Both the position numbers and the translations under genes were made by a program. A stretch of DNA of 16,893 nt, from positions 1 to 16,893 of the forward strand of contig USLH01000038.1 of assembly GCA_900555435.1 (NCBI GenBank), read 5' to 3'. The notes beneath the pieces were generated by a model. It saw nothing but the letters and a program-made list of their open reading frames with translations, made no database searches and was not told the origin of the DNA. The DNA is from an uncultured Oscillospiraceae bacterium. GTDB lineage: Bacteria; Bacillota; Clostridia; Oscillospirales; Ruminococcaceae. Below are positions 89-4,948 of the stretch, piece by piece (the first letter of the stretch is position 1; every line of letters begins with the position of its first letter).

Positions 89-1678
89 TTATTTTTCAAA
101 AAAGGCTTCAATGCCGTCTGCCGTCGCCTTTGCAAAAATCGGATTGTTCGCTTCGTTGACGCAGACGCTCAATTCTTCCTTGTTGCTCAAAAATCCGTAT
201 TCCACCAGAATAGACGCAAACTGTTTGGTACGGTTCACGGCAAATTCGCTGAACTTGGCGCCCCGATTTTTCGCATTGCTGCCGTACTCCATGGTTTTGT
301 ACGCTGCAAAGATCTCGTCGTTGACCGCTTTGGCCAGCCGCTGGGAATAGGGGTTGTTATAGTAGACCTCAATTCCCCGGGCCGAGGTGTTGTCCGCCCA
401 GTTGTGGTGTACGGACACATAGACATGGGGCATCCACTCGGTAGCCATGTCTACCCGTTCGTAAAGCCCCACTCGGTGGGCGCCGTTGACCTCCAGCATA
501 TAGACCTCCGCACCCCGGGCTTCCAGCTCTTCCTTCAGAGCTTTTGCCTTCTGCAAGTTTAATACGGATTCGTAATAGCCGCTTCCGGCATTGCCCACGT
601 CGTCGGTACCGTGACCGGGATCAATGACGATTCGGGCGTCCTCCAGGCTGTCCACCGGATTCAAAAACGTCAGGACCAAATCGCCGGAGGAGTTATACTT
701 CGCATAAGCCCCGTAATACCCACCCTGATGGGACAATTCCAACCGCAGCTGCAGCTGTGCGATCCCGTTGGTGGTCACCAGCTTCCAACTGGCGGAGGTA
801 AAGGCACTGTTTCTGGGGAAGCTGATCCGGGAGGGGGTAAAAGCGGTCGTATAGTCAAAGGTCAGGATCACCGCCGTGGGATCACAGCTGGTGACAGTGT
901 TGCTGGTGGAGCTTGCATAAGTGAGCGGGGTCGGGGTCAGGTTGAAGGGAACCTTCCAGCTTTCCTTGATGGTCAGTGTGGTGTATGTCCCGTCGTTCTT
1001 TACGGTCACGTTGGAGATCGTGTTGTTCCCCTTGGAGCCGGATCCCAAATTGGTCACGTTGCTCTTGGAGATCCGACGTCCCGACCGCAAGATATAGGTG
1101 GAGGCGGTGCTCCCCGTCACATAATCGATGGTTCCGGCAGGAAGATTGAAATAATAAGGCGCTGCGTACTCCTCGCCCCGATCTACGGAGCTGTAAATAT
1201 CCGCATAGGCTGGCTTTACCGCCACCATGTCGCCGCTGACCGGCTCCACGTTTTCGTCAGCAGGAGGATCTACCGTCACCGTGACGTTTTTCTCCGCCAC
1301 TTTGACGGATCCGCCGATCCGGGTCTCCGTCCGGCTCCCGCTTTGGGCGGTGAAGCGGATCGTTCCCAGATCCGTCCCTTCGGCAGATTTCGGGATGGTG
1401 TAGGTACCCGTGTACCAATATCCGCCGTCCTCCTGTTCCGAAGTGGCGGAAAGGGTCACGGTCTGGCCGTTGACCGATGCAGTAACTGCAGCACCTGCCG
1501 CCGTCAGCGCCCGCAGTTCCACCTTTTTCCCGGCGGGGGCGCTGACGTTCCCTTTCGGGGACACATCCTGCAGCAGGGCGGTCATCCCGGCTCCTGCCGC
1601 CGATGCAGGAAACGCCGCAGTGATCATCACAAACATAAGTAAGAGGGATACGATCCCCAGTTTCCATTTTTTTCTCAT
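89..1678 (-). CDS. Secreted N-acetylmuramoyl-L-alanine amidase (Amidase_3 / CwlD-AmiC type catalytic domain at C-terminus) with a large uncharacterised N-terminal domain
   Basis: N-terminal signal peptide MRKKWKLGIVSLLLMFVMITAAFPASAAG. The C-terminal ~180 aa (IVIDPGHG...HHNWADN...IEVYY) match the Amidase_3 zinc-amidase fold. The track ORF starts at TTG 1696. ATG at 1678 gives a canonical signal peptide and AAGGA lies 9 nt upstream. Confidence 0.8.
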   Translation of the reverse strand: MRKKWKLGIVSLLLMFVMITAAFPASAAGAGMTALLQDVSPKGNVSAPAGKKVELRALTAAGAAVTASVNGQTVTLSATSEQEDGGYWYTGTYTIPKSAEGTDLGTIRFTAQSGSRTETRIGGSVKVAEKNVTVTVDPPADENVEPVSGDMVAVKPAYADIYSSVDRGEEYAAPYYFNLPAGTIDYVTGSTASTYILRSGRRISKSNVTNLGSGSKGNNTISNVTVKNDGTYTTLTIKESWKVPFNLTPTPLTYASSTSNTVTSCDPTAVILTFDYTTAFTPSRISFPRNSAFTSASWKLVTTNGIAQLQLRLELSHQGGYYGAYAKYNSSGDLVLTFLNPVDSLEDARIVIDPGHGTDDVGNAGSGYYESVLNLQKAKALKEELEARGAEVYMLEVNGAHRVGLYERVDMATEWMPHVYVSVHHNWADNTSARGIEVYYNNPYSQRLAKAVNDEIFAAYKTMEYGSNAKNRGAKFSEFAVNRTKQFASILVEYGFLSNKEELSVCVNEANNPIFAKATADGIEAFFEK

Positions 1679-1738
1679 GATTCTTATCCTTTTCAACGTC
1701 GCATTTTACCGCTTTTTGCGGCTCTCTCTTTTTTCCGG

Positions 1739-3022
1739 CTATCCAGCCGATGGATCCTCTCCCGCAAGTGCCGGGAAAAATGTTTTTTGCGCTTCTTCCA
1801 TTGCCGGTGCATTTGCCGCTTCCGGCTCAAAAATGCTTCCGTAACGAAAGAGCATCACCCCTCCGCAGGTCGAAAGCTCCCGGACTGCCCGGATCTCCCG
1901 GGCCAGCAGATCCGGCTCTTCCAGCCACTCCCCGCTGCCGCTTCCGGCATAGAGGTCTTCCCTGCCCACCTTATAGGCGGCAAGTCCCGGAATCAGCAAA
2001 ACGCCGCTGCCCGCTGCCAGTCGATCCCACCCCGCCGCTGCCGCTTCAAAAGACGCCGCTTCGTTGCGGAAGCCATAATAAAGCTGCGGTGCAAGATAGT
2101 CGAGACATCCGGCCTCCTCTGCGCATCGTTCCGGATCAAAGTACAGCTGCTCCACACTCTGGGACAGCTGCCCCCGAGGGCTGACCCCGAATAAGATCGA
2201 AGCCGAAACCGCCTTCACGGCCGTTCCCAGCTCCTTCACCATCCGGAAGGTGTTTTCCCTTCGCCAATCGACTTGGGAAAGCGTCCCGCCTGCAGCCTGA
2301 TAGGCTTTGTAAGACGGCTCATCTGCCGAAAAGCCGAGCCCCGACGGATAAAAGTAGTCGTCGATCTGGACGCCGTCTACTCCGTACCGTGCCAGCTCTG
2401 CTCCTCCATCGGCGATCAGCTTCCGCACCTCCGGTGAACCGGGATTCAGGTAGATCCTTCCTTCCGAAAGGATCAGCCGTTCTTTCCGAAAGGCCGGGTC
2501 GTCATACCACTGCCGCAGCGGAAACGTTTCCGGGACCGATCCGATCTCCGCCTCAGTCATACCCCGCATGGGATTGATCCAGCCGTGGAAGGCAAGCCCT
2601 TTTTCCTTTGCAATCTCCGTCATGATCGAAAGAGGATCGTAAGAAAGCGCTCCTCCAACCAGCGAAGACCAAGAAAAGTACTCCGACGGATAAAAGCTGT
2701 CGCAAAAGGGGCGAACCTGCACCACCAGCGTGTTGAAGAAAGCCTTCCGGCAGTTCTCCGCCATTTCGGAAAATGATTCCCGGAAATCCGCCTCCGTCCG
2801 CCCTTTTATCAGCGGCGCCAGATCCAAATAGGCGATCCAGACCGCCCGCATTTCTTCAGAAAGCTCCTCTTCCCCGCTTCCAATCTCCCGAAAGATCTCC
2901 GTAAGAGTACCCGGATCCCCCAAAGACGGAACACGGCTTTCCGACACTTCTTCCAAAACCCCGCAGGACGTCAGCATTCCCACTGCCAGCAAAGTTACCA
3001 GCATCTTTCGCAGCTTTTCCAA
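1739..3022 (-). CDS. Lipoprotein, glycoside-hydrolase-like family 10 (GHL10/DUF187, YngK-like TIM barrel)
   Basis: Lipobox LTSC after a basic n-region (MEKLRKMLVTLLAVGMLTSC). Motifs RAVWIAY, HGWINPMRG and GVQIDDYFYP are typical of GHL10. Start is either TTG 3022 (track; gives charged n-region) or ATG 3004. No promoter in the 39-nt gap to the upstream gene, so it is probably co-transcribed. Confidence 0.6.
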   Translation of the reverse strand: MEKLRKMLVTLLAVGMLTSCGVLEEVSESRVPSLGDPGTLTEIFREIGSGEEELSEEMRAVWIAYLDLAPLIKGRTEADFRESFSEMAENCRKAFFNTLVVQVRPFCDSFYPSEYFSWSSLVGGALSYDPLSIMTEIAKEKGLAFHGWINPMRGMTEAEIGSVPETFPLRQWYDDPAFRKERLILSEGRIYLNPGSPEVRKLIADGGAELARYGVDGVQIDDYFYPSGLGFSADEPSYKAYQAAGGTLSQVDWRRENTFRMVKELGTAVKAVSASILFGVSPRGQLSQSVEQLYFDPERCAEEAGCLDYLAPQLYYGFRNEAASFEAAAAGWDRLAAGSGVLLIPGLAAYKVGREDLYAGSGSGEWLEEPDLLAREIRAVRELSTCGGVMLFRYGSIFEPEAANAPAMEEAQKTFFPALAGEDPSAG

Positions 3023-3061: not shown

Positions 3062-4036
3062 TCACTGCTCCGGCGCAACGGTAATATCTATTCGATACCC
3101 GTTGACCTTAACACTGACCTCCTTAGAGCCGGACAAAGGAAGCTCCGCCGTTTCCTTCCCGTCGATGGTCAGGCACAGTACCGAAGGGTGGGCGTCGGCA
3201 GGCCCGTCGGGAATGATGACCTGCTCCACCCCGAAGCTGTGCTTCTCCTGAATGGGATTGAAATCCAGCGCACTGTATTTATCGGAAAGGCTGTCCTTGG
3301 AAACATCTTCCTCGGGCTCCCCGGAAAACCGGGAACTCCGGAACGAACTTTCCTCGGCCATCTCCCGGCGAAGGGGCGATCGATACAACCGTGCAGGACC
3401 CCGACCGGTATAATCGGCGGTGACGTCCACAAAATTTTCCCGCTGGTCGTCCGCCGTATGGGAGGCGAGCTTCTTTTGAAGACCGCCGCTCTCCTCCTGC
3501 CGACGTCCTGTGCAGGCATAAACGATCAATTGGATCAATTCAATGAGGAAAAAGACCCCGCAGGGAATCACGATGACGCAAAGAAGCCCTTTTCGGGTCA
3601 ATAGAAAATCCCAGACCGTTCCCAGATACGGCATCGATCCTGCGGCGCGATAGCCGATCTCTCCACGGGAAAGCTCATAAGACTCCGAAAGGCGATCCTC
3701 TTTCAGCAAAACAGAGGAAATGCCATCCTTTTCCGCCAGGTTCACGATCCGGGTCAGCGTGCCGCCCTGACCGTTTTCCCGGCCGTAGACTACAACGTCG
3801 CCGGACTTCAAGCTCTGCGGCTGCACTTTCGTGAGAAAAACGAGACTGCCGTCCGGAAATTCCGGTTCCATCTCCTCGCCGTGCAGGCTCATCAGCTCAT
3901 ACCCTAAAACCCGGGGAGCCGAACCGGTACTGCGGCAGTGCCAGAGCCACCAGCACAGTCCGGAAAGCAGCAGCATAAGGATCACGAAAATCACGATCCC
4001 GGCTAATCCGATCTTCCGCCCAACACTTTTTCCCAT
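3062..4036 (-). CDS. SipW-type (ER/archaeal-type S26B) signal peptidase I homologue, predicted catalytically inactive, with ~140-aa C-terminal extension
   Basis: TM1, then ...LHGEEMEPEFPDGSLVFL...GDVVVY...TLTRIV..., then TM2. This aligns to the SipW SGSMEPEF / THRIV motifs, but the nucleophile Ser is Glu and the His is Thr. ATG at 4036 lies 8 nt after GGAGG. The track start GTG 4045 lies inside the RBS. Confidence 0.65.
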   Translation of the reverse strand: MGKSVGRKIGLAGIVIFVILMLLLSGLCWWLWHCRSTGSAPRVLGYELMSLHGEEMEPEFPDGSLVFLTKVQPQSLKSGDVVVYGRENGQGGTLTRIVNLAEKDGISSVLLKEDRLSESYELSRGEIGYRAAGSMPYLGTVWDFLLTRKGLLCVIVIPCGVFFLIELIQLIVYACTGRRQEESGGLQKKLASHTADDQRENFVDVTADYTGRGPARLYRSPLRREMAEESSFRSSRFSGEPEEDVSKDSLSDKYSALDFNPIQEKHSFGVEQVIIPDGPADAHPSVLCLTIDGKETAELPLSGSKEVSVKVNGYRIDITVAPEQ

Positions 4037-4094
4037 TTTACTCACCTCCGCACTCTCCCGAAAAATTCGGGAGGATTCGACAAACTATATCACT

Positions 4095-4124
4095 TATTAT
4101 GATACAGTTTGCCTTTCTTGTCAA
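4095..4124 (-). promoter_or_regulatory. Sigma-A type promoter TTGACA-17-CATAAT reading into the sipW-like/GHL10/amidase gene string
   Basis: Minus strand reads TTGACAagaaaggcaaactgtatCATAAT, about 60 nt upstream of ATG 4036. Confidence 0.5.
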
Positions 4125-4142: not shown

Positions 4143-4814
4143 CTATTTTTCCGTTCCGTAATCGTTGAGATCCCGGATGATCTCCCGCTCTTCGGTGATC
4201 ACCTGCGTATAGCTTTCCGGTACCCGGCCCACCAGCACCGTTTCCGCCAGAACATACTCTCCCGGCTCCGTAACTTCCACCTGCTGTCTCCCCAGAATGG
4301 CGCAGCACTGCACCTCCAGCGAAAGCAGCAGCTGGTGCCGGGTCTGGTTCACCCCACAGGCTTCAAAACGGGTGCTGATCCGTGCGGAAACGCTGCCTTC
4401 CGGAAGGAACCGGTACCGGAGCGTCGGCCCTCGTCCGGAGAGGATCCCGCTTCTCATCAGCGATCCGATCGGGATGAGAAGTTCCCCCTTTCCGGCTTCC
4501 TGAAGATTCCGGAGTATCCGCTCAGTTATTTCCGTTTTCATCCGGTTCACCGCCGAAATCTGCACTTCTACCGATTGAACTTCCCCATCCCCGTCCCGGA
4601 AAACTTCGGTCAGCTTCTCCTCCGGAAAACGGGAAAGGATCTCCTCCACTCCCTCCACCATCGCCGCAGTTGCCATTCTCCGGGCATGATGCTCCGCCAG
4701 AGCCGCGGCTGCCGGAGCCAGGTTCCGCTCCATCCGGCTGTAAAAAAGAACCGACGCCAGCAGCATCCCCGCAAGGATCCACCCGAAAAATTTTCGTCTT
4801 CTTCTCCGCCGCAT
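4143..4814 (-). CDS. yunB: Sporulation protein YunB
   Basis: Basic N-terminus plus a single TM (MRRRRRRKFFGWILAGMLLASVLFY) and the conserved IPIGSL...GILSGRGP region, typical of the YunB family. ATG at 4814 has GGAGG at -8. The longer track ORF from 4928 has no RBS. Confidence 0.7.
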   Translation of the reverse strand: MRRRRRRKFFGWILAGMLLASVLFYSRMERNLAPAAAALAEHHARRMATAAMVEGVEEILSRFPEEKLTEVFRDGDGEVQSVEVQISAVNRMKTEITERILRNLQEAGKGELLIPIGSLMRSGILSGRGPTLRYRFLPEGSVSARISTRFEACGVNQTRHQLLLSLEVQCCAILGRQQVEVTEPGEYVLAETVLVGRVPESYTQVITEEREIIRDLNDYGTEK

Positions 4815-4833
4815 TTTCCCGCCTCCTTCCCCG

Positions 4834-4872
4834 TATCCTATGAAAATCGGAACCGATCGGTCCCGGTTCCGA
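4834..4872 (-). promoter_or_regulatory. Possible mother-cell sporulation sigma (sigma-K/sigma-E-like) promoter upstream of yunB: AC-17-CATAGGATA
   Basis: Minus strand reads ggACcgatcggttccgatttt-CATAGGATA, about 20 nt before the yunB ATG. This matches the sigma-K consensus AC-N16/17-CATANNNTA. No sigma-A-like hexamers are present. Confidence 0.3.
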
Positions 4873-4885
4873 CAAAAAGCCTCCG

Positions 4886-4935
4886 AAAAAACAAAAAACC
4901 GCCGTGCAGGGGATCTCTCCACCCACACAGCGGTT
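4886..4935 (-). terminator. Rho-independent terminator after pfkA
   Basis: Minus strand: ccgctgtg...(19-nt loop)...cacggcgg followed by TTTTTTGTTTTTT. Confidence 0.55.
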
Positions 4936-4948
4936 TTGCTTCCTTCTT

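Follow-up and report, generated by a model that had tools for sequence, protein, structure and literature searches.

The gene located at positions 3062..4036 of the 16,893-nucleotide stretch of DNA analysed here (the window) codes for a 324-residue protein, hereafter X, which on the evidence of its sequence is a conserved, predicted non-catalytic member of the SipW/Sec11 (S26B-type) signal peptidase fold. It is a homologue of these enzymes without their nucleophile and general base, and it carries a cytoplasmic tail. X belongs to a small protein family of Oscillospiraceae from the gut that has not been described before, and the members of this family are almost always encoded beside two exported cell wall hydrolases. 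All features described below lie on the minus strand, like the gene itself.

A signal peptidase fold without its catalytic pair

The ATG start codon of X (4034-4036) is found 6 nt 3' of a GGAGGTG sequence (4043-4049), and the orthologues start at the same Met. From N to C terminus, X is composed of a first transmembrane segment (TM1), a SipW/Sec11-like beta domain, a second transmembrane segment (TM2) and a tail of ~150 residues. TM1 (3941..4012; approximately residues 9-32) was identified by Kyte-Doolittle hydropathy and corresponds to a helix predicted by AlphaFold2 at residues 4-37. The N terminus that precedes it is basic (MGKSVGRK) and is thus predicted to be cytoplasmic. The putative extracytoplasmic domain (3599..3925; residues 38-146) contains the beta strands predicted by AlphaFold2 between residues 46 and 135, and G45, M56-E57-P58, G63, K112, D114 and G139 are invariant in the family. 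TM2 (3521..3595; approximately residues 148-172) is supported by hydropathy and by a longer predicted helix, residues 148-199. As basic residues directly follow TM2, the C terminus is also predicted to be cytoplasmic. This topology, deduced using the positive-inside rule and the SipW/Sec11 proteins, places a hydrophobic helix on each side of the beta domain and basic residues on the cytoplasmic sides, as in the arrangement of SipW. The signal peptidase architecture proposed in the initial annotation is therefore borne out by hydropathy, AlphaFold2 and homology.

Profile searches matched X to the NCBIfam SipW model NF046067 (E-value 2e-13; 50.2 bits, under the curated cut-off of 190), to the archaeal-type signal peptidase I model TIGR02228 (E-value 6e-12; 45.7 bits, under the cut-off of 51.85) and to Pfam Peptidase_S24 (15.5 bits, under the cut-off of 23.3). 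A phmmer search of the PDB retrieved SEC11C (E-value 5e-5) and SEC11A, which also ranked top in Foldseek. Thus, X is homologous to the S26B catalytic domain both by sequence and by fold.

The positions of the Ser47/His87/Asp106 triad of SipW are occupied in X by Glu55 (codon 3872..3874), Thr95 (3752..3754) and Asp114 (3695..3697). In the alignment with SEC11, E55 of GEEMEP is opposite the Ser of SGSMEP, T95 of LTRIV is opposite the His of HRV, and D114 of KEDR is opposite the Asp of GDN. MAFFT and hmmalign gave the identical register with canonical SipW-like proteins, which were retrieved together with the family of X and retain the GSMxP, H.R and GDAN motifs. Sequence, profile and fold comparisons all agree on these three residues, and the replacement of Ser by Glu and of His by Thr next to a retained Asp can be regarded as established at the level of alignment. 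A Ser/His dyad at shifted positions was ruled out, the only His of the ectodomain (H53) and Ser51 being unconserved in the family. No active SipW paralogue was found within the window or in the 20 loci of the X family.

We collected ~30 intact homologues of X from ~12 species (Candidatus Merdivicinus, Fumia and uncultured Oscillospiraceae), a narrow distribution given that 185,579 species genomes were scanned. No Pfam or NCBIfam family covers X, and the only database name found is 'hypothetical protein'. Over the whole family, the nucleophile position is E, D, G, A or S and the general base position T, S, V, Y, L, C, K or R. His is found at the latter in none of the 20 aligned proteins and none of the 21 gene copies, two overlapping sets. 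In the clade of X, the nucleophile site is E, D or G, with Ser in one species, and the general base site is T, S, V, Y, L or C; the orthologues have thus retained the catalytic loss. Residues at the nucleophile site differ even between close sisters, with Ser in P0161 and Ala in P0162 and P0163. The Fumia subclade harbours both Ser and Lys at the two catalytic sites (SSMEP and VKRV), a dyad resembling that of P-type enzymes (boxes B and D), and its proteins might still be active. The term 'pseudo-peptidase' of the initial annotation is consequently unsafe for the whole family.

The alignment of the family comprises 23 invariant columns at identities down to 27%, 13 of them in the tail. They include the MEP box (M56-E57-P58), R96, K112-x-D114 and three tail motifs. 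In the species of X, the 90% identity cluster has 201 members (metagenome copies), and every full-length one has GEEMEP and KEDR. This pattern suggests that residues other than the catalytic Ser and His are under purifying selection. The ~12 species, the 201 near-identical metagenome copies and the invariant motifs rule out a strain-specific degenerate copy or pseudogene.

The tail (3065..3520; residues 173-324) has a net charge of -8 and is mostly predicted to be disordered. AlphaFold2 confidence is low for residues 182-271, and four strands are then predicted at residues 286-320 (pLDDT ~70-78). The first motif, D-D-x-x-E-N-F-V-D-V-T (3419..3448; residues 197-206), reads DDQRENFVDVT in X; D197, E200, F202, D204, V205 and T206 are invariant family-wide. 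It is followed by L-D-F-N-P (3254..3268; residues 257-261), with L257, N260 and P261 invariant, and by the small C-terminal beta module to which the four strands belong (3071..3226; residues 271-322), with V273, E295, A297 and L301 invariant. The extension after TM2 noticed initially is thus real and conserved across the family. Pfam scans of 12 tails at E-values up to 5 revealed no detectable similarity to any family, only scattered single matches. A profile search with the tail of X alone yielded nothing beyond family fragments and no other architecture carrying it. Beyond the signal peptidase/LexA fold, the PDB fold matches are generic small beta barrels (Tudor, chromo and BAH). On these grounds, a known or shared domain in the tail was ruled out.

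Gene neighbourhood and expression signals

Downstream of X by 39 nt is a gene for a GHL10 (PF02638) lipoprotein (1739..3022; E-value 5e-44) with the lipobox LTSC. After a 42-nt gap, it is followed by the gene for a 535-residue Amidase_3 (PF01520) protein, an N-acetylmuramoyl-L-alanine amidase (89..1696; E-value 5e-38), whose Sec signal peptide carries the AxA site PASA/AG. The best NCBIfam match of the amidase is CwlD, with a score far under the cut-off. The GHL10 domain of Clostridioides difficile Cwp19 is a lytic transglycosylase. The order X-GHL10-Amidase_3 is found in 19 of the 20 related loci, at identities down to 23-28%, and the linkage holds also where other genes have been inserted in between. 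All orthologues of the two hydrolases have kept the lipobox and the AxA signal peptide, respectively. Locus L019 harbours X but neither of the hydrolase genes. The presence of two cell wall hydrolase genes beside X, as first annotated, is thus a conserved feature. Over the same loci, X evolves faster than its neighbours, with identities of 26-41% vs 43-57% for the amidase and 41-56% for the GHL10 protein.

Upstream of X is yunB (4143..4814; TIGR02832, 112.3 bits vs a cut-off of 111.9), which probably starts at MRRRRRRK. It adjoins X in 14 of the 20 loci, including that of the cultured Fumia xinanensis, but not in L006-L008, L016, L019 and L020. In L006, spoIIM is located <10 kb from X.

A sigma-A-type promoter, TTGACA-17-CATAAT (4096..4124), is present in the spacer between yunB and X, with 11 matches out of 12, and TTGACA-17-(G/A/C)ATAAT precedes X in every related locus. 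The link to yunB and sporulation drawn in the initial annotation is thus weak and partial: it holds as to adjacency in most loci, but the promoter of X looks to be of the housekeeping type. In the relatives of the Fumia clade, a terminator is found 3' of X, and the GHL10-amidase pair has a separate sigma-A-like promoter. In that clade X is thus monocistronic, which indicates that co-regulation with the hydrolases is not required. The proposal that X heads an operon is plausible in the species of the window; given the conserved promoter of X and the terminator in relatives, it applies at best to that species. In the window, no terminator separates yunB from X. In addition, yunB is preceded by AC-17-CATAGGATA, a mother-cell (sigma-E/K)-like promoter, and read-through into X is therefore possible.

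The sequence TGTCGAA (4076..4082), 14 nt 3' of the -10 box of X, has kept its position in part of the family. It resembles a Spo0A box, the candidate site being TTTGTCGAA. There are two matches to TGTCGAA in the window vs 2.3 expected, which rules out significance from the window alone. It is a lead solely through its positional conservation across loci. The 5'-UTR of X may also form a hairpin, CTCCCGAA-ttt-TTCGGGAG (4055..4073), with complementarity between its 5' arm (CCUCC) and the Shine-Dalgarno sequence. Compared with shuffled sequences, it has no significant extra stability (z-score -1.6), and Rfam gave no match anywhere in the window; a leader containing a riboswitch or a known RNA was thus ruled out.

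A putative adaptor for wall hydrolases and its alternatives

As X is almost always encoded beside two exported hydrolases and has lost its catalytic residues, its most likely role is that of a transmembrane, non-catalytic adaptor or regulator of these peptidoglycan hydrolases rather than a protease. We put this reading forward tentatively, as one with somewhat less than an even chance of being right. It draws on synteny and on the precedents of SipA of Streptococcus pyogenes and the tail of SipW, and the clients are assigned from gene order. The dead peptidase domain would be exposed on the extracytoplasmic side of the membrane, with the ~150-residue tail in the cytoplasm. Motif conservation suggests that a groove lined by Met56-Glu57-Pro58, with Lys112-x-Asp114, may still bind a peptide in extended form but leave it uncleaved. 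The likeliest clients would be the GHL10 lipoprotein and the 535-residue secreted amidase with its classical AxA site, and X might hold, position or gate both enzymes at the membrane. The tail motifs (DDxxENFVDVT, LDFNP and the C-terminal beta module) would dock X to a cytoplasmic partner. Such a model matches the support of pilus assembly by the dead P-type protein SipA, as well as the regulation of cell wall hydrolases by dead enzymes. A more specific version, which we consider speculative and rather doubtful, is that a dead ER-type signal peptidase uses its intact groove to capture either the AxA cleavage region of the pre-amidase or part of the GHL10 lipoprotein, and leaves it uncut. The hydrolase would thereby be tethered to the membrane or silenced, and its release would follow a cytoplasmic cue sensed through the tail motifs. 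Proteins of the 'dead SipW plus long tail' kind, of which several families were encountered, would be a widespread and so far unrecognised type of transmembrane adaptor in Firmicutes.

The function of X could instead be centred on its tail, with the dead domain a mere anchor or sensor. The tail would then control a process in the cytoplasm, for example gene expression or contact with the divisome or elongasome, as has been reported for the C terminus of Bacillus subtilis SipW, and the adjacency of the hydrolase genes would be regulatory or historical. Beyond the MEP and KxD boxes, the strongest invariance is indeed in the tail motifs. The tail of SipW also has a peptidase-independent role, X has its own promoter, followed by a terminator in relatives, and long tails are found on other dead SipW-like proteins in other contexts. 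However, the MEP box and K112/D114 in the ectodomain are invariant too, which argues that the outer domain has a specific task. Moreover, no regulator gene is consistently found beside X, and the tail is unrelated in sequence to known domains, so that we consider this explanation somewhat unlikely. We judge it unlikely, and a shade more so, that X is a sporulation morphogenetic factor acting with YunB and the hydrolases in the mother-cell or forespore envelope, in engulfment, cortex remodelling or mother-cell lysis. The frequent position of yunB directly upstream, the possible read-through from its mother-cell-like promoter, the Spo0A-box-like element of part of the family, the CwlD match of the amidase, weak as it is, and spoIIM in L006 are all compatible with it. 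Against it are the near-perfect housekeeping promoter of X in every locus, the six loci without adjacent yunB and the sigma-A-like promoter of the GHL10-amidase pair in the Fumia clade. Furthermore, a 0A box 3' of the -10 box would more likely mediate repression at the onset of sporulation.

It is improbable that X is still a peptidase that processes the neighbouring amidase, be it with unconventional residues such as Glu55 together with Lys112/Asp114 or, in Fumia, with the Ser-Lys dyad. The resemblance of SSMEP and VKRV to boxes B and D of P-type enzymes and the invariance of K112 and D114 are in favour of activity, and a His87Lys variant of SipW is reportedly active. In contrast, the nucleophile site varies between E, D, G, A and S even among close relatives, and Gly and Ala cannot serve as nucleophiles. 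The variety of residues at the base position in the clade of X, none of them His or Lys, also argues against catalysis, as does the fact that the Asp of SipA equivalent to Asp114 has no part in activity. Least credible of all is a decaying, functionless paralogue, the relic of a SipW gene. The rapid evolution of X and the loss of its catalytic residues would fit such a relic, but intact reading frames (in ~12 species, and in metagenome copies numbering in the hundreds), 23 invariant columns, and a conserved promoter and ribosome-binding site do not.

Relationships to known systems and significance

In both sequence and fold, the best matches of X are SipW and Sec11, with which it shares the hairpin of two transmembrane segments around a beta domain, the cytoplasmic C terminus, and the MEP and KxD boxes. 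X differs from them in the replacement of the Ser and His of the triad. The tail of X, with its own invariant motifs, contrasts with the ~20 residues of that of SipW. SipW genes adjoin those of their dedicated substrates, TasA-like fibre proteins, whereas X adjoins cell wall hydrolase genes. In Bacillus subtilis, the cytoplasmic C terminus of SipW has a second, non-proteolytic function.

SipA (LepA; PDB 4n31) of S. pyogenes has Asp (Asp48) in place of the catalytic Ser and Gly in place of Lys. It has kept its peptide-binding cleft, has no peptidase activity and is essential for pilus polymerization; exported proteins encoded nearby depend on it. Like SipA, X has the fold of signal peptidase I but other residues at both catalytic positions, the one at the nucleophile site being acidic, and substitution is kept among the orthologues of X. 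In contrast, SipA is a P-type protein (S26A, Ser-Lys lineage) with a single transmembrane segment and no cytoplasmic tail, encoded in streptococcal sortase/pilin clusters, whereas X is of the S26B type, with a second transmembrane segment, a long tail and hydrolase neighbours, in Oscillospiraceae. X is an analogue of SipA that is outside the SipA family. The author of the initial annotation was aware of no earlier description of such a module. No Pfam or NCBIfam family covers X, but non-catalytic signal peptidase homologues and a non-proteolytic role for the SipW tail were already known.

Other, likewise uncharacterised, His-less SipW-like proteins with long tails exist, for example P0048, P0069, P0071 and P0152, P0122, P0126, and P0114 and P0147. 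They share with X the N-terminal SipW-like domain between two transmembrane segments, degenerate catalytic sites and acidic, largely low-complexity cytoplasmic tails of 100-320 residues. Their tail motifs loosely resemble those of X (an acidic-hydrophobic stretch after TM2; 'VDKNGKAxL' vs 'IDGKExAxLPL'), but these proteins can be confidently aligned with X over the peptidase-like domain only. The P0069-like family, from metagenomes, has unrelated and unconserved gene contexts, with no GHL10 or amidase gene. The dead domain is thus not tied to hydrolases generally; a general link was ruled out, and the association is specific to the X family.

How cell wall hydrolases are controlled is a central and only partly solved question in the growth, separation, autolysis and sporulation of Gram-positive bacteria, and several of the known regulators are dead enzymes. 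The degenerate LytM proteins EnvC and NlpD activate AmiA, AmiB and AmiC, and GerS is paired with CwlD in C. difficile. These systems may resemble that of X in that a non-catalytic protein acts on, or is encoded with, an envelope Amidase_3 enzyme. However, they have no homology to X and a different fold, so that the likeness would be functional.

The impact of these observations is limited by the narrow distribution of X, to ~12 species genomes. The adaptor idea is directly testable, because one of the carriers, the isolate Fumia xinanensis NSJ-33, has been cultured. If true, it would add a new fold, of the SipW/Sec11 type, to the dead-enzyme regulators of hydrolases, and X would be the first S26B-type counterpart of the streptococcal SipA.

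Homology and catalytic positions of X

The minus-strand gene at 3062-4036 codes for a protein of 324 residues, called X here. Its ATG (4034-4036) lies 6 nt after a GGAGGTG sequence, and the same Met opens the orthologues. Several independent comparisons tie X to SipW/Sec11. It matches the NCBIfam SipW model with an E-value of 2e-13 and 50 bits (cut-off 190) and the archaeal-type signal peptidase I model with 45.7 bits (cut-off 51.85); in Pfam, the only match is a weak one to S24. Human SEC11C and SEC11A were the sole real matches in a sequence search of the PDB, and their chains ranked first in a Foldseek search with the AlphaFold2 model of X, followed by Staphylococcus aureus SpsB, Streptococcus pyogenes SipA and Escherichia coli LepB. 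That model, computed from a 20-sequence family alignment, has a mean pLDDT of 71.6, with residues 11-180 at 80-90. Together with the hydropathy profile, it delineates an N-terminal helix (TM1, residues 4-37), a beta domain (strands 46-135) and a second long helix comprising TM2 and an extension (148-199); the model adds a low-confidence stretch (182-271) and four short strands (286-320). As basic residues are found before TM1 and after TM2, the beta domain is predicted to be extracellular and the tail intracellular.

In the alignment with SEC11, Glu55, Thr95 and Asp114 of X correspond to the Ser of SGSMEP, the His of HRV and the Asp of GDN, respectively, and this register is unchanged with canonical SipW-like proteins (GSMxP, H.R, GDAN). 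The catalytic triad of SipW is Ser47/His87/Asp106 (PMC8767453). A shifted Ser/His dyad was ruled out, since the box-adjacent His53 and Ser51 vary within the family. The initial annotation, a SipW-type homologue with Ser replaced by Glu, His by Thr and the Asp retained, is therefore accurate. Because X lacks two residues that define S26B and scores below both curated cut-offs, it is not an S26B member in the functional sense.

Among 5.8 billion proteins, a word-indexed search yielded 11 relatives. When 1.84 billion cluster representatives were scanned in full with HMMER, 11 reached E<1e-30, eight of them covered over both tail and domain; beyond these come thousands of ordinary SipW-domain proteins. 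Scanning one genome for each of 185,579 species identified 12 loci, in Candidatus Merdivicinus, Fumia (F. xinanensis NSJ-33 is cultured) and Oscillospiraceae/Clostridia MAGs. The only database name encountered was 'hypothetical protein', and no published account of a protein of this kind emerged from the literature searches.

Throughout the family, judged from two overlapping sets of 20 aligned proteins and 21 gene copies, the base position is T/S/V/Y/L/C/K/R and never His, and the nucleophile position is E/D/G/A/S. In the Merdivicinus-like subclade, which includes X of the window, the nucleophile is replaced by E, D or G, with Ser in one species (P0006/P0009, locus L012), and the base by a small or hydrophobic residue. 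In Fumia-like proteins, a basic residue (Lys or Arg) occupies the base position and Ser or Ala that of the nucleophile, where even close sisters disagree (Ser in P0161 versus Ala in P0162 and P0163). Given these substitutions, selection across the family maintains something other than catalysis. Orthologues share the loss of His, but not the exact Glu and Thr.

Conserved residues are found both in the ectodomain (G45, M56-E57-P58, G63, K112, D114, G139, G150, P158) and in the tail (D197, E200, F202, D204-V205-T206, L257, N260-P261, V273, E295, A297, L301). At 90% identity, the window's species forms a cluster of 201 members, in which all full-length ones read have GEEMEP and KEDR. X is under purifying selection, and we regard it as very probably a non-catalytic SipW-type homologue that selection retains.

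Genetic association with two cell-wall enzymes

The gene order on the minus strand of the window is pfkA, yunB, X, a gene for a GHL10 lipoprotein and an Amidase_3 gene. The GHL10 gene and that of the ~535-residue amidase follow X in 19 of 20 related loci, an order kept down to 23-28% identity of X. The link with yunB is looser, as it immediately precedes X in 14 of the 20. All GHL10 orthologues have a lipobox, and all amidase orthologues a Sec signal peptide, an AxA site and then a conserved (L)xxVSPKG start. Describing these neighbours as two cell-wall hydrolases is reasonable, by analogy for this GHL10, because the GHL10 domain of Clostridioides difficile Cwp19 is experimentally a lytic transglycosylase (PMC6016235). 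Over the same loci, X diverges faster (26-41% identity) than the amidase (43-57%) and GHL10 (41-56%).

Between X and the GHL10 gene, L006 has an inserted 23S-rRNA-IVP (intervening-sequence protein) gene and L007 a gene for a 1983-residue LRR protein, and both loci are among the 19. The exception is L019, where X (1494-2516) is followed by an ABC-transporter cluster and the hydrolases are absent. In five loci (L002, L004, L006, L008, L017), yajC and genes for DUF3792, a SCIFF peptide, a radical-SAM maturase and proC lie downstream of the amidase gene; in the window, fewer than 90 nt remain beyond that gene, and any such continuation is out of view. An 'uncultured thaumarchaeote' MAG (L011, CAKXAF010000112.1) has the same pfkA-to-amidase block with a PFK 92% identical to that of the window, and hence is a bacterial contamination or a mislabelled bin.

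Promoters, terminators and leader

A predicted promoter, TTGACA-17-CATAAT (4096-4124, minus strand; 11 of 12 consensus positions), lies in the yunB-X spacer. As all related loci examined (L001-L020) carry TTGACA-17-(G/A/C)ATAAT 67-107 nt 5' of X, the gene appears to have its own housekeeping-type, near-consensus sigma-A promoter, whose conservation is unusually strong for proteins as little as 23-28% identical. Following the -10 by 13-20 nt is TGTCGAA (4076-4082, minus strand), which we take to be a Spo0A-box core. Besides the window, five loci have an exact copy, in the + orientation in L002, L009 and L012 and reversed in L006 and L007; the box carries one mismatch in five further loci and is missing from the others; the background rate of exact matches is 8e-5 per nt. 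This similar placement in about half of the family suggests Spo0A control of X, probably repression, but as a lead only, since the 7-mer is not significantly enriched in the window alone. A leader hairpin (CTCCCGAA/TTCGGGAG; 4043-4073, minus strand) might form a translational switch, as its 5' arm, CCUCC, could pair instead with the Shine-Dalgarno GGAGG. The stability of this hairpin (z -1.6) is not significant; in relatives, hairpins that differ in sequence occupy the equivalent position.

An intrinsic terminator follows pfkA, and AC-17-CATAGGATA, resembling a mother-cell sigma-E/K promoter, then precedes yunB (both within 4815-4948, minus strand). For yunB, the annotated GTG start (4928) probably lies too far 5'; translation is likely to begin at MRRRRRRK, at about 4814.

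That X heads an operon is plausible in the window, where the 39-nt gap before the GHL10 gene contains no terminator, but this is not a family feature. In the Fumia clade (L008, L017, L018, L020), a clear intrinsic terminator after X and a separate TTGCAT-17-TATAAT promoter for GHL10-amidase would make X monocistronic. Merdivicinus-clade relatives (L001, L003, L004, L009, L012-L016) share a conserved motif between X and GHL10, TGCAACA-N16/17-CAC(T/G)ATT, whose AAC-containing -35 resembles those of ECF-type promoters and which the window's short gap lacks.

Possible roles of X and of related proteins

X is a conserved membrane protein of SipW/Sec11 fold, non-catalytic in this clade, with a conserved tail and a genetic link to two exported cell-wall enzymes. 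Its intact MEP and KxD boxes may preserve a peptide-binding groove that would hold a client without cleaving it, and the tail would dock to a cytoplasmic partner; X would then span the membrane as an adaptor for, or a regulator of, the neighbouring hydrolases. We put forward this adaptor role tentatively, at somewhat under an even chance. By analogy, X might work like S. pyogenes SipA, the closest precedent, in which Ser is replaced by Asp and Lys by Gly, the cleft is preserved and activity is absent, and which is essential for pilus polymerisation (PMC4049620). X nevertheless falls outside the SipA group, as lineage (S26A versus S26B for X), topology and context differ.

Alternatively, X might have a tail-centred signalling role. 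The SipW cytoplasmic C-terminus has a peptidase-independent function (PMC8767453); the tail of X matched no Pfam family, and a tail profile search never found it joined to another architecture. X might also act with YunB in a sporulation-specific role: no terminator separates yunB from X in the window, so read-through during sporulation is possible. Residual or unconventional proteolysis is a further rival; the pseudo-peptidase proposal holds for the window's clade, but single Ser+Lys members of the Fumia-like clade (box-D-like VKRV) may still be active. Lastly, decay of X is improbable; the conserved residues, with GEEMEP and KEDR kept in full-length cluster members, rule out a pseudogene.

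Dozens of proteins (P0021-P0045 and others) are oddly built fusions of 650-760 residues, in which a response-regulator receiver at the N-terminus is joined to a SipW-type peptidase domain, apparently intact, at the C-terminus. Of the 150 best SipW-domain matches, ~25 more proteins, like X, lack the His, and several have long acidic tails. Those lacking His, and often Ser, include P0048, P0069, P0071, P0152, P0122, P0126, P0114, P0147 and P0102, with cytoplasmic tails of 100-320 residues. One tailed His-less family has the conserved end ...APPKKxS..T.xELMSMIDAEExKL. In metagenomic loci of one such family (L021-L027), the neighbours are unrelated to those of X, and hence the hydrolase link is specific to X. 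Dead SipW-like proteins with tails thus represent a wider, undescribed phenomenon.
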